In this document: positions 1,276-59,075 of the stretch, piece after piece | Numbering within the stretch: the stretch's first letter is position 1 | Layout: each line of letters opens with the position of its first letter | Assembly: GCA_035402805.1 (NCBI GenBank) | Contig: DAONDY010000002.1 | Span: 149,963 to 213,962, forward strand | Length of the DNA: 64,000 bases | DNA from: Candidatus Woesebacteria bacterium | GTDB lineage: Bacteria > Patescibacteriota > Microgenomatia > UBA12405 | Direction: 5' to 3' | Notes under the pieces: model-generated | Database searches by the model: none | The model's input: only the letters and a program-made list of their open reading frames with translations | Told to the model about the DNA's origin: nothing | Translations under genes and position numbers: made by a program

Positions 1276-1337
1276 ACTAAGTTAGTTTAACAAGAACAGC
1301 TTAAAATTATTAAAATCAAATTAAAATTTATTTAAAT

Positions 1338-1452
1338 CCTTCCTCCCCGATATTTATCGGGGTATCCTCCCTTATCAAGGGAGGAAGTATTATCTTTTAA
1401 TTTCTCCCTTTGTTAAGGGGAGATGTTGAACGAAGTGAAACAGAGAGGATTA
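1338..1452 (+). repeat. Intergenic palindromic repeat unit, family B copy B1: successive GC-rich hairpins (ccccgatatttatcgggg; tcctcccttatcaagggagga; tctccctttgttaaggggaga) ending ...aacagagaggatt
   Basis: Near-identical core tttctccctttgttaaggggagatgt...gacagagaggatt also at ~37460-37530 and 40001-40047. Related to right terminal repeat of DUF559 element at 51650-51704. Confidence 0.7.
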
Positions 1453-3881: not shown

Positions 3882-5372
3882 TTAGAAAGTGGCAGTAGCA
3901 ATATAACTAATTTGATTTTCATAAGTGCCAGCTTGTTGAGTGGTAGAAGCAACCGCTCGATAACAAACATAAATAGAATCAGTACCAGTTGGAGTATTGG
4001 TGCGGCTTAAGATTGGTTGAGCATTAGCAAAACCAATTCCGAATGGTTTATAGTGACCAACAGTAGTAATACCAATTGAAGCAGTAGTTCCTGTAGTAAC
4101 ACCAACTTCGAGAGAGTAACCAAAACCAGAATTAGTATAAGCAGTCCAGGCTCTTTGGGCTGTGGGAGTACAACCAGTCCCTTCACAAGTAGTATTAGGA
4201 ATAGTAAGACCAACACCACCAGCACCAGTGGTTCCAATGGTGGTCATAACTTGATTTTCGAAAGCTTGAATTACATAACCATTAGCTGAATTAGTTGTAC
4301 AAGAAATGCTTTGAGCAAGGTTGTTGTAAGTGCCCAAAACTAATGGTCCAAAATTTACAGAAGTAGCTGTTGTCTCTGGAGCTCCATTACTAATTGGGAG
4401 TCCGCAACGGCTGGTTCCGATTGAGGTAGTATTTGAAGATCCAATAGTGAAAGTAATGGTTGGATCGACAATAGCGGTAACTCTAACACTTTCGGTGACA
4501 GCTAATTTTCCGAAAGTAGTATCAATAACATTACCAAAAGTATCAATTTGTCTGATGGCATAATTATATGCATCAACTGTACCAGTAGCTTGTCCAGGGA
4601 CATGGTTAATGCCTGGAGCTGGATTGATTAATTTGCTGTAAGTATCTCGACCAATGACCATACTAATACCAACACCGACAGTGGAAGCATTACCACTACA
4701 CTGAATGACGTGATAGGTTCCAGTAGAACCAATATTAACTCCAGAGGAAATGAAAACAGTGGTTCCAACACTGGCAGTACCACTAAGAGGACAAGTAATA
4801 TCAGCTACTTTTAAAGCAGTTCCCGGTCCAGTGGTGGTAGAACCAACATCTTTACCTAAATCAAATCCGCCTTGATCTGGAATACCATCTGCTGGTAGTT
4901 CACCAGGGAGATTGGTAGCTTTAATTAAAAATTGCCAAGTTTCACCAACACCAGTAGAACTTTGGGGAACGAAAGAAACAGTGTGAACAGCAGAACGGGT
5001 GGCAATAACATAAGCGTTAGGAGTAGTAGTACCAATAGCGGTAGAAAGTTCTATGGAGGCGGTATCACCAATATTTCTAACAATGTAAGTGCTAACAGTG
5101 GTAACACCAGCGTTAGCAATAACGATAGTATCACCAGTAGCAAGATTGGCGGTAATGATTGAAGGAGCTGAACTACCGATAGTATTTATTTTAATAGTAG
5201 ATCCATTAGCACTACTTAGACGACCAAAAAAAGACAATTGAGCTGTAGAAAGTTGGTCTTTTAGACTATTGACAGGGGCTGATTTAATTTGACTACCATT
5301 AGCGAAAAAAGTTAAATAGACAGGCAATGCCAGAAAAAGAAATGTTACAACTCGAAATAAAGCTTTTTTCAT
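3882..5372 (-). CDS. Secreted Thr/Gly/Ser-rich surface protein (496 aa) with signal peptide; first gene of a three-gene surface-protein operon (3882-5372, 2887-3879, 2003-2887)
   Basis: ORF track. MKKALFRVVTFLFLALPVYLTFFANG signal peptide. Low-complexity T/G/S/V-rich beta-strand-like composition. 3-nt gap to next gene. Confidence 0.5.
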   Translation of the reverse strand: MKKALFRVVTFLFLALPVYLTFFANGSQIKSAPVNSLKDQLSTAQLSFFGRLSSANGSTIKINTIGSSAPSIITANLATGDTIVIANAGVTTVSTYIVRNIGDTASIELSTAIGTTTPNAYVIATRSAVHTVSFVPQSSTGVGETWQFLIKATNLPGELPADGIPDQGGFDLGKDVGSTTTGPGTALKVADITCPLSGTASVGTTVFISSGVNIGSTGTYHVIQCSGNASTVGVGISMVIGRDTYSKLINPAPGINHVPGQATGTVDAYNYAIRQIDTFGNVIDTTFGKLAVTESVRVTAIVDPTITFTIGSSNTTSIGTSRCGLPISNGAPETTATSVNFGPLVLGTYNNLAQSISCTTNSANGYVIQAFENQVMTTIGTTGAGGVGLTIPNTTCEGTGCTPTAQRAWTAYTNSGFGYSLEVGVTTGTTASIGITTVGHYKPFGIGFANAQPILSRTNTPTGTDSIYVCYRAVASTTQQAGTYENQISYIATATF

Positions 5373-13719: not shown

Positions 13720-14330
13720 TGAGATTGTTGGAAAAAATACAAAAACTAAAAATAGTTGACGGATTATTAGTGATAGGTTTTTTGCTGGTAATTTTAGGTA
13801 TTGGAATGAATTTTAAAGATCAGTTTATGACGAAAGAAGAAGTAAAAATAGAGACAAAAAATATTAGTCCAACAGGTAAAAGTGATATACAAGTTGATAT
13901 TGAAGTAGTTATTGATATATCAGGAGAAGTGATGAAAGCTGGTGTTTATAAACTAAAAAATGGATCAAGAATTGATGATGTATTAATAATGGCCGGGGGA
14001 CTAAGCTTAAAGGCAGATAGGAATTGGGTGGATAAAAATTTAAATCGAGCGGAAAAAGTTTACGACGGACAAAAGATTTATATACCTAAAGTTGGGGAAA
14101 ATGTTGTTATTAATAGCACCCCGCTGGTGCGGGATGCTATTGTAGTCAGACTTAATTCGGCGAGTTTGGAGGAGTTGGATAAGTTGGATGGAGTGGGTCC
14201 GGCGATTGCTCAAAGAATTATTGATTATCGAACTGAAAATGGGGGATTTAAAAGTGTGGAAGAAATTAAATTAGTGCCAGGGATAGGAGATAAGATGTTT
14301 GAAAAGATAAAAAATGAAATTCAATTATAA
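13719..14330 (+). CDS. comEA: ComEA-type DNA receptor: N-terminal TM, SLBB-like domain, C-terminal tandem helix-hairpin-helix
   Basis: C-terminal LDKLDGVGPAIAQRIIDYRTENGGFKSVEEIKLVPGIGDKMFEKIKN (HhH). N-terminal membrane helix. Confidence 0.8.
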   Translation: MRLLEKIQKLKIVDGLLVIGFLLVILGIGMNFKDQFMTKEEVKIETKNISPTGKSDIQVDIEVVIDISGEVMKAGVYKLKNGSRIDDVLIMAGGLSLKADRNWVDKNLNRAEKVYDGQKIYIPKVGENVVINSTPLVRDAIVVRLNSASLEELDKLDGVGPAIAQRIIDYRTENGGFKSVEEIKLVPGIGDKMFEKIKNEIQL

Positions 14331-15228
14331 ATATTTAATTTGGTTGGGAATATTTTTAGTAGTTATTTTTATATACAAGTTTATAAATAAGGATAGTTTT
14401 ATTGAGGTTATTTTTCAAAATTTGCCGCCGAGGGAAGCGAGCTTAATGGCGGGGATGGTCTTTGGAGATAAAAATAATTTTGACAAAAATACTATCTTAA
14501 ATTTTCAATTTAGTGGGGTAATTCATATTATGGTGGTTTCGGGAACGAATATTGTTTTAGTGTTTAGAGGTTTAGTAGAAAGAATTGCAAGCTGGATTGG
14601 TAGGAAAAGAGCAATTATATTGGGATTTGGAGTGACTTTGGTTTATATAAATTGGGTAGGTTGGGAAATACCGGCGGTCAGAGCTTTTTTACTGATGAGT
14701 ATTTTTTATTGGGCACAATTGCTTGGTCGCAAATTTAACCTATTTAGAGCCATAATGTTGATTATTTTAATAATGGTTTTGGCCGATTATCGGGTATTTT
14801 TGAGTGGCAGTTTTTATTTAAGTTTTGTGGCATTTGGGGCAGTAGTAATTAATTTAAACAAGTCGCGAAAATGGTGGAGTGATTTATGGAATTCATTCTG
14901 GGTAAATTTATGGCTTTTACCAATTTTGGCTTTGTTTTTTGGAAAAATAAGCATAGTGGCACCGATTACTAATGCTTTAATTTTATTTTTAGTCGAAATA
15001 ATTACTATTTTAGGGGTGATAGGAAGTTTTTTTGGTTTATTGGTGCCTATTTTGGGTAAAATCGTATTATGGATAAGTTATCCGTTATTGAAATATATAC
15101 TATTAATAGTAGATTGGTTGGCGAGTTTTAAATGGTCGAGTATAGAGATTAAATTTAATTGGTTGTTTCTAATTGGTTGGTATTCATTATTAATAGCTTG
15201 GTGGTTGAAGAAAAAAAATGAAACATAG
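14314..15228 (+). CDS. comEC: ComEC/Rec2 competence-domain membrane channel protein (304 aa), lacking the N-terminal OB domain and with the beta-lactamase-like domain encoded separately
   Basis: Competence-domain motif SLMAGMVFGDK...SGVIHIMVVSGTNIVLV and multiple TM helices. Confidence 0.75.
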   Translation: MKFNYKYLIWLGIFLVVIFIYKFINKDSFIEVIFQNLPPREASLMAGMVFGDKNNFDKNTILNFQFSGVIHIMVVSGTNIVLVFRGLVERIASWIGRKRAIILGFGVTLVYINWVGWEIPAVRAFLLMSIFYWAQLLGRKFNLFRAIMLIILIMVLADYRVFLSGSFYLSFVAFGAVVINLNKSRKWWSDLWNSFWVNLWLLPILALFFGKISIVAPITNALILFLVEIITILGVIGSFFGLLVPILGKIVLWISYPLLKYILLIVDWLASFKWSSIEIKFNWLFLIGWYSLLIAWWLKKKNET

Positions 15229-15976
15229 AATTATTTTGTTTTTGTCATTAATAATGTTGGTGGTGTTGTTTTGGATAACTTTACCATCAAAAAAAGTGAA
15301 AGTAATTTTTTGTGATGTGGGCCAAGGGGATGCGACTTTGATAACTTATAAAAATTGGCAAATGTTAATTGATACTGGTCCAAATAATAAAAAAGTGTTG
15401 AATTGTTTAGAAAATAATTTACCATTTTGGGATAAAAAAATTGAGATGTTAATGATTACTCATGGAGATAATGATCATGATGGTGGTTTAACAGATATGT
15501 CGAAATATTATAAAGTTGAACAAGTTATTTACTCTAAAAATGTGAATCAATTTGATTTAATTAGAACTGATTGGATGACATTTGAGGTGGTCAATTCTGG
15601 GTTGAAAGATGATAATGAAAATTCAATAGCCGGTGTTTTAAGTTATGAAAAAACTAAAATTTTTTTTAGTGGAGACATAACGGCTGACACTGAAAAGAGA
15701 TTGGTATGGCAAAAAATATTAACCGATAAGGTTGATGTTTTAAAAGTCAGTCATCATGGTTCGAAAGATGGGACTAGTGAAGAATTATTAGAAGTATTAA
15801 AACCAAAATTGGCAATAATAAGTGTGGGAGTAAAAAATAAATTTGGGCATCCAACCAAAGAAGTATTAGATCGTCTAAAAGAAAAAGGAATAGAGATTAG
15901 AAGAACAGATGAGAATGGAGAAGTGCATGTAATAGATGTATTAGAAGAAATAGATAAAAAAGAAGTAATAGATTAA
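15218..15976 (+). CDS. Metallo-beta-lactamase-fold protein corresponding to the ComEC C-terminal domain (separate ORF, 11-nt overlap with comEC)
   Basis: VIFCDVGQGDATLI, HGDNDHDGG (HxHxDH zinc motif), SHHGS motifs. Confidence 0.75.
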   Translation: MKHRIILFLSLIMLVVLFWITLPSKKVKVIFCDVGQGDATLITYKNWQMLIDTGPNNKKVLNCLENNLPFWDKKIEMLMITHGDNDHDGGLTDMSKYYKVEQVIYSKNVNQFDLIRTDWMTFEVVNSGLKDDNENSIAGVLSYEKTKIFFSGDITADTEKRLVWQKILTDKVDVLKVSHHGSKDGTSEELLEVLKPKLAIISVGVKNKFGHPTKEVLDRLKEKGIEIRRTDENGEVHVIDVLEEIDKKEVID

Positions 15977-37217: not shown

Positions 37218-37240
37218 ACTTGTATTATCTCATTAAATTA

Positions 37241-37330
37241 AATTCTCGTCACAAATTTTTTATGTCTGGTGAATGTGGTCGCCCACGTTCAAGGACACAA
37301 AAAATTGTGTCTTCGAACTTAATTTATGTC
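37241..37330 (+). repeat. Intergenic repeat family A, copy A2 (inner hairpin gaatgtgg-tcgc-ccacgttc)
   Basis: Alignment by eye to A1/A3. Between divergent murB and ruvC. Confidence 0.7.
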
Positions 37331-37409: not shown

Positions 37410-37530
37410 TAATTAAATCCCTCTTGTCCTGCGGACATCCTCCCTCAACGAGGGCGGAAGTCTTTTTATTTTTCTCCCTTTGTTAAGGGGAGATGTCTCC
37501 ACGCTAACGCGGGGAGACAGAGAGGATTTT
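37410..37530 (+). repeat. Family B repeat unit, copy B2 (…tcctccctcaacgagggcgga…ttttctccctttgttaaggggagatgtctcc…ggggagacagagaggatttt). Coordinates +/-10 bp.
   Basis: Same core as B1 and B3. Lies ~80 bp downstream of A2 and ends ~15 bp before ruvC start. Confidence 0.65.
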
Positions 37531-37543
37531 GATACAATGAATT

Positions 37544-39870: not shown

Positions 39871-39956
39871 TGAGTGGCTCCTCTTATATCGGAATAATGA
39901 TTAATTAATATCAGTAAAACATATTAGATATTAGTGTGTCAATAATCAATTAAAAC

Positions 39957-40050
39957 CTACCCCTAACCCCTCCCTTAAAAAAGGAGGGGGAAATGTTTAT
40001 TTTTCTCCCTTTGTTAAGGGGAGATGTCACGAAGTGACAGAGAGGATTTT
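39957..40050 (+). repeat. Family B repeat unit, copy B3 (cccctcccttaaaaaaggagggg hairpin; tctccctttgttaaggggaga hairpin; gtcacgaagtgac hairpin; ...agagaggattttt)
   Basis: Seen in sequence. Overlaps the GTG-extended 5' end of the downstream ORF. Confidence 0.7.
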
Positions 40051-40066
40051 TAGTGTAGAATTGTTT

Positions 40067-41056
40067 ATGGACTATAAAATTGCATTTTTTGGAGTTAAAA
40101 GTTGGGAAAGAGAAATTATAGAAAAAAAGATTGCAGGGTTGGATGTTTTTGGGGTGGGGATTTTTGAGGGGGAAATTCAAGATAATTTAGAATTGGCGGC
40201 AAAATATGACATTATTTCGCCTTTTATTTATTCAAAAATGGATAAAGAGGTGTTGAATAAATTGCCGAATTTGAAAATGATTGCTACCAGATCGACGGGG
40301 ATGGATCATATAGATATTAGTGAGTGTGATAAGAGAAAAATAAAAGTAGTTAATGTACCGATTTATGGTTCAAACACAGTGGCGGAATATACTTTTGCTT
40401 TATTGTTGGCAATTGCTAAAAAAATAGTAGTGGCTCATCAATCAGTGGAGGATGGTGAATTCAATCCAGAGGGTTTAACTGGAGTGGATTTGTATGGAAA
40501 AACTTTAGGAGTAATAGGTTGTGGAAAAATAGGGCAAAACGTGATCAAGATTGCTAAAGGCTTTGGAATGAAGGTTTTAGGAGTTGATGGTAAACAAGAT
40601 CATCTTTTGGCTAAAAAAGTTGGTTTTAAATATGTAAGTTTAGAAGATTGTTTGCAGGAGTCGGATTTTATAACACTTCATGTGCCAGCTATACCAGAGA
40701 CATTTCATATGATTAATAAGAAAAATATTAAATTGATGAAAAAGGGAAGTTATCTGATTAATACTTCGCGGGGAGCGGTAATTGAAACTGAGGCAATTGT
40801 GTGGGCATTAAATAATAAAATTTTGACTGGGGCGGCTTTGGATGTAACCGAGGAAGAAAATCTTTTGGAAAGTATGAGTGTGGTGATGAGCAGAAAAATT
40901 ACTAAAGATGATTTACAGGAGGTTTTGAGTTTTCATATGCTTCGAGATCGGGATGATGTAATATTCACGCCGCATAATGCTTTTAATACTAAAGAAGCAA
41001 TTGAAAGAATTGTAGAAACGACGATTGAAAATATTAAGAACTTTTTAAAGAATTAA
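40067..41056 (+). CDS. D-isomer-specific 2-hydroxyacid dehydrogenase (D-lactate dehydrogenase-like)
   Basis: NAD-binding GVIGCGKIGQNV, catalytic R/E/H triad region (TSRGAVIETEA...FTPHNAF). ORF track frame from 40034, start moved to ATG 40067 (MDYKIAFFG). Confidence 0.75.
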   Translation: MDYKIAFFGVKSWEREIIEKKIAGLDVFGVGIFEGEIQDNLELAAKYDIISPFIYSKMDKEVLNKLPNLKMIATRSTGMDHIDISECDKRKIKVVNVPIYGSNTVAEYTFALLLAIAKKIVVAHQSVEDGEFNPEGLTGVDLYGKTLGVIGCGKIGQNVIKIAKGFGMKVLGVDGKQDHLLAKKVGFKYVSLEDCLQESDFITLHVPAIPETFHMINKKNIKLMKKGSYLINTSRGAVIETEAIVWALNNKILTGAALDVTEEENLLESMSVVMSRKITKDDLQEVLSFHMLRDRDDVIFTPHNAFNTKEAIERIVETTIENIKNFLKN

Positions 41057-50318: not shown

Positions 50319-50915
50319 TTAGAGTTCTTTAGAAACCTGTAAGAAGTCGAGTTCGACTGGAGTTTCTCGTTCGAAAATGGAAATCAAAACTCTAATTTTA
50401 CCTTTTTCTTGGTCAATAGATTCGATAGTACCAATAAAATCGGCAAATGGACCGTTGATAATTTTAACGACATCACCAATAGCAAAAGGAGTTTGAAATT
50501 TTGGTTTGTCTTCTTCTGTAGTTTGAAGAATTTGATCAACTTCCTTTTGGGAAATAGGGGATGGAGTGTTTTCAATACCAATGAAACCAGTGACTCCTTG
50601 AGTGGTACGAACAGTAACCCAAGCATCATCATCCATAACCATTTGAACTAAGACATAACCTGGAAAGGTTTTTTCTTGAGATTTAACTTTTTGACCACGA
50701 CGAATGATCATTTTACTTTGAATAGGAACGATGGCTTGGAAGATTTTATCTTCAATTCCCATAGTTTTGATTCTGGTTTTTAAAGCCTCAATAGCTTTGT
50801 ATTCATGACCGGAATAGGTATTAATGACATACCAAGCGGCATCGATACTAGGTTCAAAAGGAGAGAGTTTAAATAAAAACTCTTTTTTGTTAGTTTTTGT
50901 AGATGTTTTTGGCAT
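50319..50915 (-). CDS. nusG: Transcription antitermination factor NusG
   Basis: NGN domain (WYVINTYSGHE) and C-terminal KOW (FAIGDVVKIINGPFADFIGTI). Confidence 0.88.
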   Translation of the reverse strand: MPKTSTKTNKKEFLFKLSPFEPSIDAAWYVINTYSGHEYKAIEALKTRIKTMGIEDKIFQAIVPIQSKMIIRRGQKVKSQEKTFPGYVLVQMVMDDDAWVTVRTTQGVTGFIGIENTPSPISQKEVDQILQTTEEDKPKFQTPFAIGDVVKIINGPFADFIGTIESIDQEKGKIRVLISIFERETPVELDFLQVSKEL

Positions 50916-50917
50916 AA

Positions 50918-51196
50918 TTATTTTTTAATTGTTCCAGTGGTAGAAGCGACCGTTGGAAGAGGAATAATTGAAGGTTCGGCGGCTTGTTCAACAGTGGCCG
51001 GAGTCTGATTTTTAAAGTTACCAATTAGGGCGAAAGACTTGGTAAACAGATAATCAAAACCTCCCAAAATTAGGGAGATTACAATCGAGATTGATATTAC
51101 CACAATTGTAAGCTGAATTAAAGTATCTTTTTTAGGCCATGAGATGCTTTGAAAAACTTCTCGCACTTCTTTAAAGAATTTAATGATTTTTTGCAT
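50918..51196 (-). CDS. secE: Preprotein translocase subunit SecE
   Basis: 92 aa, single TM (IVVISISIVISLILGGFDYLF). Position upstream of nusG. Confidence 0.75.
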   Translation of the reverse strand: MQKIIKFFKEVREVFQSISWPKKDTLIQLTIVVISISIVISLILGGFDYLFTKSFALIGNFKNQTPATVEQAAEPSIIPLPTVASTTGTIKK

Positions 51197-51210
51197 GAAA
51201 GTATTATAAC

Positions 51211-51704
51211 AAAACCCCTTTGTTTCGCTTCGCTCAACATCTCCCCTTGATAAAGGGGAGAAACATAATAAGATTAAAATGTGAAATATATTACTGATAT
51301 TAAAGCTAAAACTAATAAATTAAACATAAGATATTTAGAATCTTTAAAAAAGGTGGCAAGGAATAATAGAAGTAAGCCAACTCAAGCAGAATTTATAATG
51401 TGGCAACATTTAAGAAAAAATAAATTTGGTTGTAAATTTACGAGACAAAAACCGATTAATAGATTTGTTTTGGATTTTTATTGTTCTAAATTATTGTTAT
51501 GTATAGAAATAGATGGAGAATCTCATTTAAATAGACAAAATTATGATCTAGAAAGAGATAAATTCTTAGAAAATTGTTTAGGTATTAAAACAATTAGATT
51601 TAGTAATGATGAGGTTTTGAATGATTTTTTGAAAGTAAAAGAAAAACTTCTCCCCTTTATCAAGGGGAGATGTCACAAAATGAAATGAGTGACAGAAGGG
51701 TTTT
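51211..51704 (+). mobile_element. Putative compact mobile element: DUF559 endonuclease ORF bounded by ~55-bp imperfect terminal inverted repeats (left aaaacccctttgtttcgcttcgctcaacatctccccttgataaaggggag; right ctcccctttatcaaggggagatgtcac…gtgacagaagggtttt), each containing palindromic hairpins
   Basis: Reverse-complement comparison of both ends: identical 24-nt inner block, matching aaaaccc/gggtttt tips. Right repeat supplies the last 13 codons of the ORF. Confidence 0.6.
51281..51688 (+). CDS. DUF559 (Vsr/MutH-like restriction endonuclease fold) protein, 135 aa
   Basis: …EFIMWQHLRKNKFGCKFTRQKPINRFVLDFYCSKLLLCIEIDGESH… matches DUF559 core (D…E.DG..H). GTG start. Confidence 0.65.
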   Translation: MKYITDIKAKTNKLNIRYLESLKKVARNNRSKPTQAEFIMWQHLRKNKFGCKFTRQKPINRFVLDFYCSKLLLCIEIDGESHLNRQNYDLERDKFLENCLGIKTIRFSNDEVLNDFLKVKEKLLPFIKGRCHKMK

Positions 51705-51835
51705 AAACACCGCGGAATTGTTGCAAAATTCAATTTTGATACATTTTAGTCTATTGACTCGTACTAGTGGTGGTGGATATGATGATTAACATACACTATA
51801 AATAGTGTTTTATTAATTATAATAAAAATTACAAA

Positions 51836-52336
51836 ATGCTGTGTCCATATTGTGGTTTTGATGAATCAAATGTTTTGGAAAGTCGTGAGGCAGAAGATGG
51901 AAAAGTGACGAGAAGACGAAGGGAATGTTTAAAGTGCAAAAAGAGATTTACAACTTATGAAAGAATCGGGAGCGTGGAGCTAAAAGTTATTAAAAAATCA
52001 GGGAGAGTTGAAGATTATTCTCGAGAAAAATTAGAAAAATGTATAGATAAGGCTTGTTGGAAACTGACGGATGAGGAAAAAAATAAATTAATTGATGAAA
52101 TTGAAATGAAACTTTTAAACTGGCCAAGTGTGGAAATTCCCTCGAAAGAAATTGGAATGATGGTGTTAGAAAAATTAAAAAATATTGATCCTATGGCATA
52201 TATTAGGTTTGCTACTGTTTATTTGGATATAAATGAAATAAATGACTTTAAGGATTTATTAGTTAGTTTTGAAAAATTTCGGCCAAAGGCCGATCAGCCT
52301 ATGGCTGAAATTAGCAGTTTTAAAAATAAAAAATGA
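51836..52336 (+). CDS. nrdR: Transcriptional repressor NrdR (Zn-ribbon + ATP-cone)
   Basis: MLCPYCGFDESNVLESRE…RRRRECLKCKKRFTTYERI signature. Confidence 0.9.
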   Translation: MLCPYCGFDESNVLESREAEDGKVTRRRRECLKCKKRFTTYERIGSVELKVIKKSGRVEDYSREKLEKCIDKACWKLTDEEKNKLIDEIEMKLLNWPSVEIPSKEIGMMVLEKLKNIDPMAYIRFATVYLDINEINDFKDLLVSFEKFRPKADQPMAEISSFKNKK

Positions 52337-54801
52337 CAGATATAAGCAGGCAAAACATAAATGAAAATGAATTATTAGAACCAAGTCTTTCACTTAATGC
52401 TAAATATATTGCCGAAACTAGGTATTCTAGAAAAGATGAAGATGGAAAATCTATAGAAACAGTTAAAGATATTTTTTGGCGTGTAGCAAGTAATGTGGCC
52501 AAAGGAGATGCAGTTTTTGGAGCTAATGAAGAACAGATTGATAGACAGGCCAAGTCTTTTTACCAATTAATGGCAGAACAAAAATTTCTACCAAATACTC
52601 CGTGTTTGGTTAATGCAGGAAAGACCCATCAGCAATTATCGGCTTGTTTTGTACTGCCAATAGATGATTCGATGGAATCAATTTTGGAAACCATGTCAAA
52701 TATGGCTTTGATTCATAAAAGTGGCGGTGGAACTGGTTTTTCATTTTCAAGACTTAGACCAAGCGGGGATTATATTAAAAGTAGCGGTGGAACAACTGTT
52801 GGCCCGGTAAGTTTTATGCAGGCCTACAACGATGTAACGGCTCAAATTAAACAAGGTGGAGTACGACGGGGAGCTAATATGGGAATGTTGTCAATTGATC
52901 ATCCAGATGTACTTCGATTTGCAGTGGCAAAGCTTGATGAATGGAGTTTGACTAACTTTAATATATCGTTGGCAGTGACTAATTCTTTTATGGAAAGAAT
53001 TGAAATCGATAAAAAATTTGCAGATGACGATTCTATTCCTGAAGAAGCGGTTGAAGAAATTAGAATTGCCGAGCAAAACAGAAGTGCCGACGAAAGATTA
53101 AGAGAGGTAGAGGCTGGAATTAAAAAAGTCTATGATTGGGCTAAAGCCACTAAAGAAGGTGAGGGTTATGATCTAATTAACCCAAGGACAGGTCAGTCGA
53201 CAATGAAATTAAATGCTTATAAAGTATTTAATTTGATTACCAGATTAGCTTGGCAATTTGGTGATCCGGGATTGGTTTTTATTGACAGAATGAATGAATC
53301 TAGTTCAAATCCAATACCGAGCGTAGGAAAAATTGAAGCAACTAATCCTTGTGGAGAACAGCCGCTTTTGCCTTACGATGCTTGTAATTTAGGAAGTGTT
53401 AATTTAAGTAAATTTGTCGAAGGATCGGACATAAATTGGAATGGATTGAAGGAAACAATTAAAATAGGGGTTCACTTTTTGGATAATGTGGTAGAAATTA
53501 ATGATTTTCCGGTTCAAAAAATTAAAGAAATGGTAAATAGCACTCGAAGAATTGGAGTGGGAGTGATGGGTTTTGCTGATGCTCTTTTTAAATTGGGAAT
53601 TAAATATGATTCAGAAGAAGGAATTGCTTGGGCTGAGAAAATAATGAAATTTGTAACCGAATCAGCTAAAGAGGCAACCCAAGAATTAGGAGTAACCCGA
53701 GGAGCTTTCCCATTATGGGAAAAGAGTGTTTATTTCAACACTGGTTATAGACCAAGGAATATGGCTTTAACTACCATTGCTCCAACTGGAACCATCAGCA
53801 TGTTGGCTGATACTAGTTCAGGAATCGAGCCAGTGTTTTCTTTGGGTTATCAAAAAAATACGGTTGAAGGTAAAACATTGTATATAGTCAGTCCAATTTT
53901 GGTTGAAGAGCTTAAAAAGAGAAATATTTACAGTGAAGAATTAATTGAAAAGATTGTTAAAAATGGGGGAATTTTGAAAGGAATAGAGGAAATACCAGAA
54001 GACTTAAAATCATTATTTATCACCGCTTTGGAAATTGATCCGGAATGGCATATTAGGGTTCAAGCAGCTTTCCAAAAATATACCGACAATGCGGTGTCTA
54101 AAACAATTAATTTACCAGAAGAAGCCACAGTTGATGATGTACGAAAAGCTTATTTAAAATCTTATTCATTAGGAACAAAAGGAATTACTATTTACAGGAG
54201 CGGTTCAAGATCTTTTGAGCCAATGCAAAAAGTTAAAGCTAAAGAAGGAAAAGTTGAAGAAAAAATAATTAATGTTCAACCCAAGAAAAAAGCCACTCCA
54301 ATAATGGCCAGAGGGGTTAGATTAAAGAAAAAATGTGATTTGGGAAGTGTTTATACTTCTATTTTTTATGAAGCCGGTGATGGTCCAGTGGAAGTCTTTG
54401 TTAATTTAGGTAAAAGTGGTGGTTTTATGTCAGGAGCGGCTGAAGCGACCGGTAGACTAGCCTCTTTAGCCTTAAAATATGGGGCTAGTTTAGATGAAAT
54501 TGCAGATGAAATGGTGGGAATAGCCTGCGGCCAAAAAGTGGGTTTAGGATCGGGGACAGTTCTAAGTATGTTTGACGCAGTTGGTAAATCACTTTTAGAA
54601 GTATCAAGAGGTGAACAATTAGATATTTTTGCTTGCGAAAAAGGTTCTATTGATACGAAAGCAATTGAAAGTATTAGAGTCAAACAAGCCGATTTGGAAA
54701 GCAAGGCTATTTCTTGTCCAGATTGCGGTAGTCCTTTAAGAGCTGAAGAAGGATGTTTTAAATGTACTAATGAATTTTGTGGTTATAGTAAATGTTCATA
54801 A
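52333..54801 (+). CDS. nrdJ: Class II (adenosylcobalamin-dependent) ribonucleotide reductase, monomeric NrdJ type with C-terminal Cys-rich tail
   Basis: RNR barrel motifs (NPCGEQPL, catalytic Cys/Asn/Glu context), B12-type length and C-terminal CPDCG…CFKC. Confidence 0.85.
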   Translation: MTDISRQNINENELLEPSLSLNAKYIAETRYSRKDEDGKSIETVKDIFWRVASNVAKGDAVFGANEEQIDRQAKSFYQLMAEQKFLPNTPCLVNAGKTHQQLSACFVLPIDDSMESILETMSNMALIHKSGGGTGFSFSRLRPSGDYIKSSGGTTVGPVSFMQAYNDVTAQIKQGGVRRGANMGMLSIDHPDVLRFAVAKLDEWSLTNFNISLAVTNSFMERIEIDKKFADDDSIPEEAVEEIRIAEQNRSADERLREVEAGIKKVYDWAKATKEGEGYDLINPRTGQSTMKLNAYKVFNLITRLAWQFGDPGLVFIDRMNESSSNPIPSVGKIEATNPCGEQPLLPYDACNLGSVNLSKFVEGSDINWNGLKETIKIGVHFLDNVVEINDFPVQKIKEMVNSTRRIGVGVMGFADALFKLGIKYDSEEGIAWAEKIMKFVTESAKEATQELGVTRGAFPLWEKSVYFNTGYRPRNMALTTIAPTGTISMLADTSSGIEPVFSLGYQKNTVEGKTLYIVSPILVEELKKRNIYSEELIEKIVKNGGILKGIEEIPEDLKSLFITALEIDPEWHIRVQAAFQKYTDNAVSKTINLPEEATVDDVRKAYLKSYSLGTKGITIYRSGSRSFEPMQKVKAKEGKVEEKIINVQPKKKATPIMARGVRLKKKCDLGSVYTSIFYEAGDGPVEVFVNLGKSGGFMSGAAEATGRLASLALKYGASLDEIADEMVGIACGQKVGLGSGTVLSMFDAVGKSLLEVSRGEQLDIFACEKGSIDTKAIESIRVKQADLESKAISCPDCGSPLRAEEGCFKCTNEFCGYSKCS

Positions 54802-57824: not shown

Positions 57825-58982
57825 ATGATAGATGAACAAGTTAGAGACTTAATTAAAAAAGAAGAAGAAAGACAAGAGAAATTAGTTCACTTAATTCCCA
57901 GTGAAAACTTTGCCTCTGATGAAGTTAGAATGGCGTTGGGAAGCTGTTTAACTAATAAATATGCCGAGGGTTATCCTGGCAGAAGATATTATCAGGGCAA
58001 CGAATTTATAGATCAAATCGAAAATTTGGCTATTGAGAGGGGTAAAAAGGTGTTGGGAGTGGAACATTTAAATGTTCAGCCATATTCTGGAAGTCCAGCT
58101 AATAGTGCTGTTCAAATGGCATTATTGGAACAAGGGGATAAAATTTGTGGATTGAAATTATCGGCTGGCGGACATTTAACTCATGGTCATCCAAAAATTA
58201 CTTTTTCAGGAAAATTTTTTGAAAGTGTGCAGTATGATGTGGAAGAAGATGGACGAATTGATTATGATAAGTTGGAAAAATTGGTTTTAGAAGAAAAACC
58301 GAAAATGATTATAGCCGGGACTACGGCTTATCCTTATATTTTAGATTTCAAAAGATTTGGGGAAATTGCTGATAAAGTTGGAGCTTGGTTGGTGGCGGAT
58401 ATTTCTCATATTGCTGGGCTAGTGGTTGGCGGAGTTCATCCGAGTCCAAATGAATATGTTCATGTTATTACTTCTACAACTCATAAAAGTTTAAGAGGTC
58501 CACGGGGGGCAGTGATTGGAATTACTAAAAAAGGAATGGAAAAAGATGTTGATTTGGCTAAAAAAATTGATCGAGCCGTTTTTCCAGGTTTACAAGGCGG
58601 TCCACACGAAAATCAAATAGCTGCTTTGGCGGTAGCTTTTAAAGAATGTGATACGCCAGAATTTAAGGATTATGCGGCTCAGATTGTTAAAAATGCTAAA
58701 GTTTTAGCTGAAACTTTACGAAAAAATGGGTTAAAAGTTTTTGGGACGGAAAATCATTTAATGGTGGTGGAGGTGGGTTTTGAAAAAGGCAAAGATGCGG
58801 CAGTAAAATTGGAAGAAAATGGGATTGTGGTTAATGCTAATACAATTCCTCATGATACAGCTGGTCCCTTTAGACCATCTGGAATTAGAATTGGAACTCC
58901 AGCCATGACAACCAGAGGGTGGAAAGAAAAAGAATTCGAGGAATTAGGAAATAAAATTGCAGGGATAATAAAGAATTTATAA
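57825..58982 (+). CDS. glyA: Serine hydroxymethyltransferase
   Basis: PLP-lysine motif TTHKSLRGPRGA, GGHLTHG. Confidence 0.9.
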   Translation: MIDEQVRDLIKKEEERQEKLVHLIPSENFASDEVRMALGSCLTNKYAEGYPGRRYYQGNEFIDQIENLAIERGKKVLGVEHLNVQPYSGSPANSAVQMALLEQGDKICGLKLSAGGHLTHGHPKITFSGKFFESVQYDVEEDGRIDYDKLEKLVLEEKPKMIIAGTTAYPYILDFKRFGEIADKVGAWLVADISHIAGLVVGGVHPSPNEYVHVITSTTHKSLRGPRGAVIGITKKGMEKDVDLAKKIDRAVFPGLQGGPHENQIAALAVAFKECDTPEFKDYAAQIVKNAKVLAETLRKNGLKVFGTENHLMVVEVGFEKGKDAAVKLEENGIVVNANTIPHDTAGPFRPSGIRIGTPAMTTRGWKEKEFEELGNKIAGIIKNL

Positions 58983-58987
58983 ATTTT

Positions 58988-59075
58988 AAATTCTCGTTAC
59001 AAATTTTTTATGTCTGGTGAATGTGCGGTGCACGTTCAAGGCCATAAAAAATTGCAACTTCGGATTTAAAATTAC
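58988..59075 (+). repeat. Intergenic repeat family A, copy A3 (inner hairpin gaatgtgc-ggt-gcacgttc) between convergent glyA and a small membrane-protein gene
   Basis: Alignment by eye to A1/A2. Confidence 0.7.

Follow-up and report, generated by a model that had tools for sequence, protein, structure and literature searches.

What kind of genetic unit is a small nuclease gene that stands between two inverted hairpin repeats, wedged among housekeeping genes? The question is raised by a stretch of 64,000 nucleotides from a Candidatus Woesebacteria bacterium (contig DAONDY010000002.1, positions 149,963 to 213,962; hereafter the window, in which all window coordinates are counted), where an open reading frame (ORF) for a DUF559 protein lies between secE and nrdR. 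L-numbers such as L014 and L061 denote loci of related genomes. The presence of the DUF559 ORF between two inverted hairpin arms is confirmed, and comparison with relatives shows that this cassette is an insertion unit at several gene junctions in Shapirobacteria-like genomes of the Candidate Phyla Radiation (CPR). The reading towards which we lean is that of a selfish nuclease-gene cassette, in which a small Vsr-fold DUF559 gene lies between two inverted two-hairpin repeats of ~55 nt.

The cassette between secE and nrdR

The DUF559 ORF (51281-51688, plus strand, GTG start, 135 aa) has secE (50918-51196, minus strand) and nrdR (51836-52336, plus strand) as its neighbours. The cassette and its borders are made up as follows:

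51203..51211, minus strand: extended -10 box of secE, TGTTATAAT, outside the element and adjoining the left tip, followed by 6 nt and the ATG (first base 51196)
51211..51264, plus strand: left arm, from tip to core (nhmmer E=4e-11; DNA fold z=-5.5)
51211-51222, plus strand: left-arm tip AAAACCCCTTTG
51222-51238, plus strand: left-arm variable, imperfect hairpin GTTTCGCTTCGCTCAAC, followed by the linker AT
51241-51260, plus strand: left-arm conserved hairpin CTCCCC-TTGATAAA-GGGGAG, followed by the inner flank AAAC
51247..51274, plus strand: promoter-like site of the DUF559 gene (-35 TTGATA, 16-nt spacer, -10 TAAGAT, 6 nt, GTG)
51281..51688, plus strand: DUF559 (Vsr-fold, PD-(D/E)XK) nuclease gene, 135 aa (Pfam PF04480, 3HRL match, dN/dS 0.16)
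51646..51704, minus strand: right arm, inverted copy (nhmmer E=1.6e-11; DNA fold z=-3.7/-4.8)
51650-51669, minus strand: right-arm conserved hairpin CTCCCC-TTTATCAA-GGGGAG, followed by the linker ATGT
51672-51693, minus strand: right-arm variable hairpin GTCAC...GTGAC
51694-51704, minus strand: right-arm tip AGAAGGGTTTT
51705..51720, no strand: right flank aaacaCCGCGGAATTG, kept beside nrdR in occupied, remnant and empty relatives and thus marking the outer boundary of the insertion

The ORF is bracketed by a perfect 26-nt inverted repeat (51237-51262 and 51648-51673) and by 13-nt outer tips (51211-51223 and 51692-51704) that are 85% complementary. Allowing up to three mismatches, the 20-mer CTCCCCTTGATAAAGGGGAG occurs at only two places in the 64 kb, namely in both arms, where 100 shuffles lead one to expect 0.00. 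Each arm has the order tip (AAAACCYCTCTG), variable hairpin, ACAT and conserved hairpin CTCCCC-loop-GGGGAG. The variable hairpin differs in sequence between the two arms of the window cassette, its position and pairing being common to both; in the right arm the last T of the ATGT linker doubles as the T of the opening GT of this hairpin. Since the right arm begins at 51648, ahead of the stop codon, which ends at 51688, the final 13 codons (LLPFIKGRCHKMK) are encoded by the arm. An earlier note on this DNA, made from the sequence alone, had described a 135-aa DUF559 ORF within inverted repeats of ~55 bp, the right one of which supplies the 13 C-terminal codons, and in this it was correct. It had also ascribed to each repeat the same palindrome plus a second hairpin; the conserved hairpin and the tips were borne out, but the sequence of the second hairpin is not shared and the left one is imperfect.

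The window locus was found identical in at least 10 independent assemblies, which rules out an artefact. Chance similarity or an assembly error can be given practically no credence: besides this identity and the shuffle expectation of 0.00, the same architecture recurs in 11 diverged relatives, and this explanation is already refuted.

The protein scores 97.6 bits with the Pfam model DUF559 (PF04480), whose cutoff is 20.6 (E=4.9e-28; positions 3-107 of the 109 in the profile), and matches the sequence of PDB entry 3HRL with E=2e-14. With an AlphaFold model of it (pLDDT 84, pTM 0.75), the best Foldseek match was again 3HRL, a DUF559 structure (E=5.8e-7), and the second was 3R3P, the catalytic domain of the homing endonuclease I-Bth0305I (E=4e-4, TM 0.78-0.82); the match to Vsr (1VSR) was weak (E=0.2). 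The Vsr-like EDxHD homing family has I-Bth0305I as its prototype (PMC3239194). In an alignment of 41 sequences, E76, D78, G79, H82, D89 and R92 are invariant (E-x-D-G-x-x-H with D and R downstream), and by analogy with Vsr and the EDxHD enzymes these residues would be catalytic (PMC3239194). The profile search matched PF04480 only and not the Vsr mismatch-repair family; the neighbours are secE and nrdR, and there is no Dcm partner. NCBIfam yielded only a sub-threshold DUF559 model and PADLOC only weak matches. All ten full-length cassette ORFs are intact, and with a median dN/dS of 0.16 the cassette protein is under purifying selection.

Could the hairpins be nothing but expression signals, i.e., promoter, terminator or RNA-processing stem, of a repair or defence nuclease whose gene moves by ordinary horizontal transfer or recombination, the dispersed units being remnants or look-alikes? 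Several features of the cassette accord with this. The -35-like TTGATA is contained in the loop that closes the left conserved hairpin, a -10 box precedes the start codon by 6 nt, and the layout TTGATA, 16-18 nt, TAAnnT, 6 nt and start codon is common to the window, L061, L117 and L083, which makes it plausible that the left hairpin loop supplies the -35 of a leaderless promoter for the DUF559 gene. On the minus strand, the right arm provides a terminator-like hairpin with a T-run, and the ORF ends within that arm. Expression does not, however, require arms that are inverted copies with the same conserved tips, and gene-less doublets and solo units occur at many loci, conserved as units between genomes. 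Furthermore, a Vsr-type repair role would lack its Dcm partner, and the weak PADLOC matches do not speak for defence. We therefore consider this explanation distinctly unlikely.

A processing stem was considered separately. In 23S rRNA intervening sequences (S23p or four-helix-bundle ORFs), a small ORF lies within inverted repeats at conserved sites, and these repeats pair as an RNase III stem. In the cassettes, each arm type preserves its own stem (CCTCCC/GGGAGG as opposed to CTCCCC/GGGGAG) whereas complementarity between the arms is not preserved, and the variable hairpins differ within one cassette. Long-range pairing of the arms as an RNA-processing stem of the intervening-sequence type is thus disfavoured; the cassettes further differ from intervening sequences in that their sites are intergenic. 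Rfam covariance models run on 50500-52500 with E up to 10 gave no relevant match to the arms. The GGGAGG of the left-type arm was ruled out as the Shine-Dalgarno sequence of the nuclease gene, lying more than 20 nt from the start codon.

Insertion, inversion and decay in related genomes

A metagenome scan with the window protein gave 53 loci. Eleven DUF559 copies have at least 57% identity to the window protein (those of the window itself, L061, L117-L122 and L110, and two in L108). In all 11, an arm stands 15-53 nt upstream of the start, and the ORF runs with its last 22-37 nt into an inverted arm. All convergent arm pairs spaced 373-416 bp apart enclose DUF559, and no other cargo was seen. 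These observations support the statement of the earlier note that ORF and repeat are physically one unit, and they supply the further copies with the same arms for which it had proposed to search. Two genomes hold two or more diverged cassettes: JAEWUV01 (L061 and L110) and that of L108, with two. Extra partial arms in opposite orientation lie between the left arm and the DUF559 start in L119 (~3927-4000) and L122 (~3899-4000), giving the order doublet, ORF, right arm, which indicates nested or adjacent unit insertions. In Flavobacteriaceae, a DUF559 gene of 40% identity (L028, 6368-7020) is flanked by the same unit family in opposite polarity, with the tips toward the gene.

The 11 cassettes occupy at least four unrelated contexts: between secE and nrdR (window, L061, L117), between the N-terminal part and the lactamase_B part of ComEC, upstream of leuS (L118-L122), after large surface-protein genes (both copies of L108), and a further, different context in L110. 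Homologs of 50-60% identity, whose arms are variants built to the same plan, are found at secY|adk, dnaJ|HTH and Fic|ligA; in the first of these, the stop codon of secY is overlapped by the left tip, and 2 nt separate the right tip from the adk ATG. The ComEC junction is empty in the window itself:

15200..15235, plus strand: empty ComEC junction, where 11 nt are shared by the overlapping ORFs 14314-15228 and 15218-15976 and no unit is present

Exactly at this junction, five relatives (L118-L122) carry a full cassette and L018 a solo unit. ComEC is split in the window into an N-terminal membrane part (14314-15228) and a separate lactamase_B part (15218-15976).

The secE|nrdR junction presents the whole range of states between flanks conserved among relatives (CAT...GTATTATAACA on one side and CCGCGGAAT...TTGC on the other). 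The cassette is full in the window and L061 and full but inverted in L117. Remnants are present in L014 (left arm and right tip) and L074 (left arm only), L202 has a possible tip remnant, and L201 has the conserved flanks and no unit. In L083, an internally deleted cassette has kept, besides both arms, 38 codons from the start of the gene and ~10 from its end. As these series show, internal deletion reduces the cassette to ORF-less doublets and solo arms, which form the majority of repeat copies. In L200 (1456-2000), the same secE|nrdR site is occupied by an unrelated insert of 545 bp, which has a 68-aa ORF and lacks a hairpin unit, and this intergenic site seems to be an insertion hotspot.

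That the cassette can invert between its arms is evident from L117, where the whole of it (3937-4415) is flipped relative to the window and L061 between the same secE and nrdR flanks; this is consistent with recombination between inverted arms. In an inversion screen, "DUF559 domain-containing protein" was enriched among predicted inversion targets with an odds ratio of 14.3 (Milman et al. 2023, PMC9881135), which fits the inverted arms. The programmed-inversion targets of that study resemble the cassettes in combining DUF559 with inverted repeats and inversion signals, as in the flipped L117 copy. They differ in that no hairpin-bounded cassette, ORF-less derivatives or empty sites appear there, and in that the flip of a cassette turns the whole gene and leaves the coding sequence unchanged.

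The resident copy at secE is old. Identity between the window and L061 is 84% for DUF559, 82% for NusG and 76% for NrdR, and on each of the 10 contigs read the exact window protein was encoded at this locus. The secE|nrdR cassette is older than the split between at least five related genomes, in two of which it is decaying. Flank-like divergence, the constant locus and the age of the copies together argue that the secE copy is an old, vertically inherited, ancestral resident of this clade and no recent insertion; more generally, the cassette persists by vertical descent under purifying selection. A recent insertion at secE is thereby contradicted by the very outcome that the earlier note had named as speaking against it. 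Its placing of the insertion on the secE promoter holds in part: the left tip merely abuts the extended -10 box, and the core promoter is not interrupted by the cassette, the box, the 6 nt and the ATG being kept in relatives both with and without it.

Extended -10 boxes (TGnTAnAAT) lie 5-6 nt before start codons at secE (51203-51211), ruvC (37531-37539) and the gene starting at 40067 (~40051-40061), an arrangement suggestive of leaderless mRNAs. In the case of secE and ruvC, the TG of the box forms the outermost bases beside the repeat tip.

The repeat family, its doublets and its occurrence around DUF559 genes

The arms belong to a larger family of repeats. When one genome per species was scanned with the core CATCTCCCCTTNNNAAAGGG, more than 116 loci were obtained, mostly from metagenome-assembled genomes (MAGs) of Shapirobacteria, Microgenomates and other CPR bacteria and some from Bacteroidota; viral contigs contained only 6 exact matches to the unit core. 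The aligned unit consists of AAAACCYCTCTG, the variable hairpin and then ACATCTCCCC-TTNNNAAA-GGG(G)AGAAGTCTT. Its tip has the consensus AAACCYCTCTG, and beyond the conserved hairpin CTCCCC-loop-GGGGAG the unit continues with AAGTCTT. The conserved hairpin has a compensated variant, in which CCTCCC...GGGAGG takes the place of CTCCCC...GGGGAG.

Pairing is also kept in the variable hairpin, of which 62 distinct versions exist among 90 units. A stem of at least 3 bp is formed by 57 of the 62 versions, but by 10 of 62 once they are shuffled; pairing amounts to 94.7% over the four outer pairs, and sliding the partner column lowers this value to 24-57%. Double changes fill 27 cells, compared with 5.4±2.0 in shuffles. 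With DNA parameters, the core-to-tip strand of this hairpin was the more stable one in 24 cases, the less stable in 4 and equal in 34; with RNA parameters the numbers were 21 and 15, a weak bias that cannot separate an RNA from a DNA function.

Three further sites in the window carry units of this family:

1334..1452, plus strand: doublet A, a CCTCCC/GGGAGG left arm, an 18-nt spacer and a canonical right arm (E=2.7e-11; z=-3.8)
37415..37530, plus strand: doublet B, between murB and ruvC (E=1.3e-11; z=-5.0)
39952..40050, plus strand: doublet C, upstream of a dehydrogenase-like gene starting at 40067 (E=1.3e-12)

The earlier note had listed these three sites as solo units of the same family; the sites are right, but each holds an inverted pair made up of a left arm of diverged type (CCTCCC-loop-GGGAGG) and, 12-18 nt from it, a right arm of canonical form. 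The same asymmetry of left-type and right-type arms is seen in the cassettes of L118, L121 and L122 and in one of the two L108 cassettes (L108a). The doublets recur whole, with 78-83% identity, in other genomes and contexts: doublet A has full-length matches in L020 and L039 and doublet C in L105. The ruvC ATG is preceded at 5 nt by an extended -10 box, TGATACAAT, whose TG is provided by the right tip of doublet B. Single-strand folding of the three doublets gave z values of -2.4 to -5.0. Within MAGs, a match in loop subtype between cassettes and dispersed units was consistent in two cases, but TTAAAAAA makes up 47% of units and the match is hence uninformative.

The abundance of such doublets brings up the possibility of a domesticated system like that of repetitive extragenic palindromes (REPs) and their REP-associated tyrosine transposases (RAYTs), in which the units would be tolerated by or useful to the host as insulators, terminators or promoter-proximal elements, and DUF559, inherited vertically and in low copy number, would be the enzyme by which they are maintained or dispersed. 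The gene is indeed flanked by inverted units, doublets are common and units far exceed genes in number; vertical inheritance and purifying selection, the good folding of the doublets and the tips abutting extended -10 boxes at secE, ruvC and the gene at 40067 point the same way. Loss and decay in close relatives, however, speak against an indispensable role in the host; there are genomes with at least two diverged cassettes (JAEWUV01; L108), the enzyme is no HUH Y1 transposase, and in the window the cassette arms match the dispersed units in subtype weakly or not at all. On balance, domestication appears unlikely.

Other DUF559 genes are bracketed as well. With a flanking inverted repeat counted at a score of at least 30, 29 of the 45 DUF559 ORFs with enough flanking sequence lie between inverted hairpins, the downstream arm usually beginning inside the ORF. 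Among 495 random window pairs of the same geometry, 10 reached this score, of which 8 were cassettes, leaving ~2 of 487 (~0.4%). The bracketing repeats fall into at least nine unrelated GC-rich hairpin classes, such as GCCCCCTAAnnTAGGGGGTTGGGGG and CCTCCCCAAGC...GCTTGGGGAGG. Given the difference between 29 of 45 and ~0.4% of controls, hairpin bracketing looks like a trait of the DUF559 family, with repeats that change with the protein subfamily. The tail LLP[FL][IL][KR]G[RD][CV], for instance LLPFIKGRC, is encoded by the conserved hairpin of the right arm, and more distant homologs read the unit DNA in other frames, as their FSPFQGEM, SLVKGR and PPCQGRG tails show; the constraint is accordingly on the DNA and not on the peptide.

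Three minor observations concern intergenic repeats. In Bacteroidota (Labilibaculum and others), arrays of units (L038, 3981-5180; L092, 7283-7937; L073) are non-coding and have periods of ~385 bp and ~185 bp. A second intergenic repeat of ~85 nt (AAATTCTCGTCACAAATTTTTTATGTCTGGTGAATGTGGTCGCCCACGTTCAAGGCCATAAAAAATTGCGACTTCGG...), which had no match in Rfam, is present in the window at 37240-37324 and 58975-59069 and in a Shapirobacteria MAG (L018, 4928-5025), the copies being 86-92% identical between both window sites and that MAG; the L018 copy adjoins the solo hairpin unit at the ComEC junction. Finally, mechanically called ORFs begin inside units (MLNEVKQRGL..., from GGGGAGATGTTGAACGAAGTGAAACAGAGAGG) or end there (L119 3014, L122 3002, L108 5875, window 40034), and units may thus lengthen proteins by peptide tails or mislead annotation as to where genes start and end.

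Mechanism and comparison with known systems

How could a nuclease gene with such arms be propagated? In the selfish cassette that we favour, the nuclease would recognise the arm and nick or cut there, the likely cues being the conserved tip, the linker and the first hairpin together with the shape of the variable hairpin. A PD-(D/E)XK nuclease alone cannot rejoin DNA, and for this reason host recombination or replication is invoked, which would then copy the cassette or the doublet in a manner resembling homing or the mobilisation of REPINs (paired REPs) by RAYTs, without transposase chemistry.

A number of points weigh against this proposal. Colonisation of naive sites is not accounted for by a nuclease-only mechanism, and the connection between nuclease and arms is drawn from sequence association. 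The gene is present at only ~7 of the 116 repeat-bearing loci, so that units far outnumber nuclease genes, and in Bacteroidota units also stand in tandem arrays without a nearby DUF559. The arms of the window cassette (loop TTGATAAA, 6-bp stem) are of another subtype than the doublets of the window (loop TTAACAAA). The covariation of the variable hairpin could stem from quasipalindrome correction instead of selection. No target-site duplication or direct repeat was found flanking the 11 cassettes or derivatives and the three doublets, where ends in A/T runs blur the exact boundaries to a resolution of 1-3 nt. The copies are old, with dS of 0.4-2 between cassettes and no evidence of recent movement. 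Near-identical copies were not seen in the genome fragments available: the L108 pair has a dS of 0.51, and the exact window protein occupied one locus on the 10 contigs read. No recognised transposase (DDE, HUH, serine or tyrosine) is encoded in the cassette, of which DUF559 is the sole ORF, the window and the fetched loci being unscreened for another mobilising enzyme such as a Y1 transposase.

The same evidence bears on the proposal of the earlier note that the cassette is an autonomous element and the dispersed units are its derivatives of the type of miniature inverted-repeat transposable elements (MITEs). In a classical transposon with terminal inverted repeats (TIRs), DUF559 would be the transposase cutting at the TIRs, and the doublets would be MITEs mobilised in trans. 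Terminal inverted arms with conserved tips, filled and empty orthologous sites, the internal-deletion derivative in L083 and doublets conserved whole in the contexts of other genomes are to its credit, yet it meets with the missing target duplication, with an enzyme that is a Vsr-fold nuclease of 135 aa, with the lack of near-identical copies at a locus that is the same in all 10 assemblies read, and with a divergence like that of the neighbouring housekeeping genes. To our knowledge, no strand-transfer or covalent-intermediate chemistry exists among Vsr-fold PD-(D/E)XK nucleases. We regard the classical transposon as very unlikely; a nuclease-driven, recombination-dependent element, of homing or REPIN/RAYT type, fits the data better than an autonomous transposon with MITEs. 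Of the original proposal, the ORF-less derivatives are retained on the strength of L083 and the doublet asymmetry, and classical autonomy is not. Similarly, the search that it had suggested for empty sites and target duplications was successful for the former (the ComEC junction; secE|nrdR in L201) and turned up none of the latter. A consistent TTAA-type target pattern was not observed at the insertion ends either.

In its working the cassette comes closest to a REPIN/RAYT system or to a homing-endonuclease gene that stands free, and in appearance it resembles an insertion sequence (IS) with MITEs, but it lacks a defining feature of each. With REP/REPIN-RAYT systems (Bertels and Rainey 2011, PMC3116915; Bertels et al. 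2017, PMC5581495) it shares a dispersed intergenic hairpin repeat with frequent inverted doublets and a low-copy gene between two inverted repeats that is largely vertical and under purifying selection. In contrast to the RAYT, an HUH Y1 (IS200-like) transposase, its enzyme is a PD-(D/E)XK Vsr-fold nuclease, and its unit has two hairpins and an AAACCYCTCTG tip where the REP has a GTAG/CGTC tag. Moreover, cassettes are insertion-polymorphic, decaying and sometimes present more than once per genome, and their ORF overlaps the repeat.

The likeness to EDxHD homing endonucleases such as I-Bth0305I (Taylor et al. 2011, PMC3239194) lies in the Vsr-like catalytic fold, 3R3P being the second-best structural match, in the nuclease-only selfish gene, and in presence, absence and decay at the same conserved loci, wedged among housekeeping genes. 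Unlike the two-domain enzymes of the I-Bth0305I type, which reside inside a group I intron or intein, the DUF559 protein is a single 135-aa domain with no separate DNA-binding domain, and the cassette is intergenic and free-standing. It is also bounded by inverted hairpin repeats and has ORF-less repeat derivatives. As the cassette is found at unrelated sites, one protein-read target sequence cannot account for its distribution, which is a further difference from homing genes.

IS elements with MITE derivatives (Correia/NEMIS, ERIC and Nezha; reviewed in PMC3184786) are similar in having terminal inverted repeats and non-coding internal deletions of ~100-120 bp that fold into long hairpins and are located intergenically, near promoters. 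The cassette differs from them in being without a recognised transposase, a detected target-site duplication and families of near-identical copies. A hairpin-bounded DUF559 cassette was not found described in the literature searched (on DUF559, REPIN/RAYT, Vsr-like enzymes and MITEs or REPs of CPR), subscription journals being outside the coverage; in this the earlier note, which knew of no TIR-bounded DUF559 unit, was upheld.

A wider generalisation is possible, and we put it forward tentatively: small DUF559 proteins may be the enzymes of an unrecognised, cross-phyla class of selfish elements, nuclease-only and hairpin-ended cassettes that seed REPIN- or MITE-like repeats, a non-HUH counterpart of RAYT/REPIN whose subfamilies co-diversify with their ends. 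Among the large nuclease families of bacterial genomes, DUF559 is one that is still unexplained. If small DUF559 proteins were such cassette engines, the family would gain a testable function, a widespread class of intergenic repeats in CPR and Bacteroidota would gain an origin, and a second type of enzyme beside the HUH transposases would be seen to sustain REP-like repeat populations. The position of cassettes at junctions of highly conserved genes (secE, secY|adk, ligA, ComEC) is of relevance to annotation, through unit-encoded tails and false ORF starts, and to gene expression in very compact genomes.

One further observation concerns the taxonomy of the related loci. Those of L014, L020, L074, L083, L108 and others derive from third-party-annotation (TPA) MAGs labelled "uncultured Gammaproteobacteria". 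Their SecE, NusG and NrdR are 68-85% identical to those of the window, and the best matches of the window NrdR are named Candidatus Shapirobacteria; the Gammaproteobacteria label of these MAGs looks wrong.

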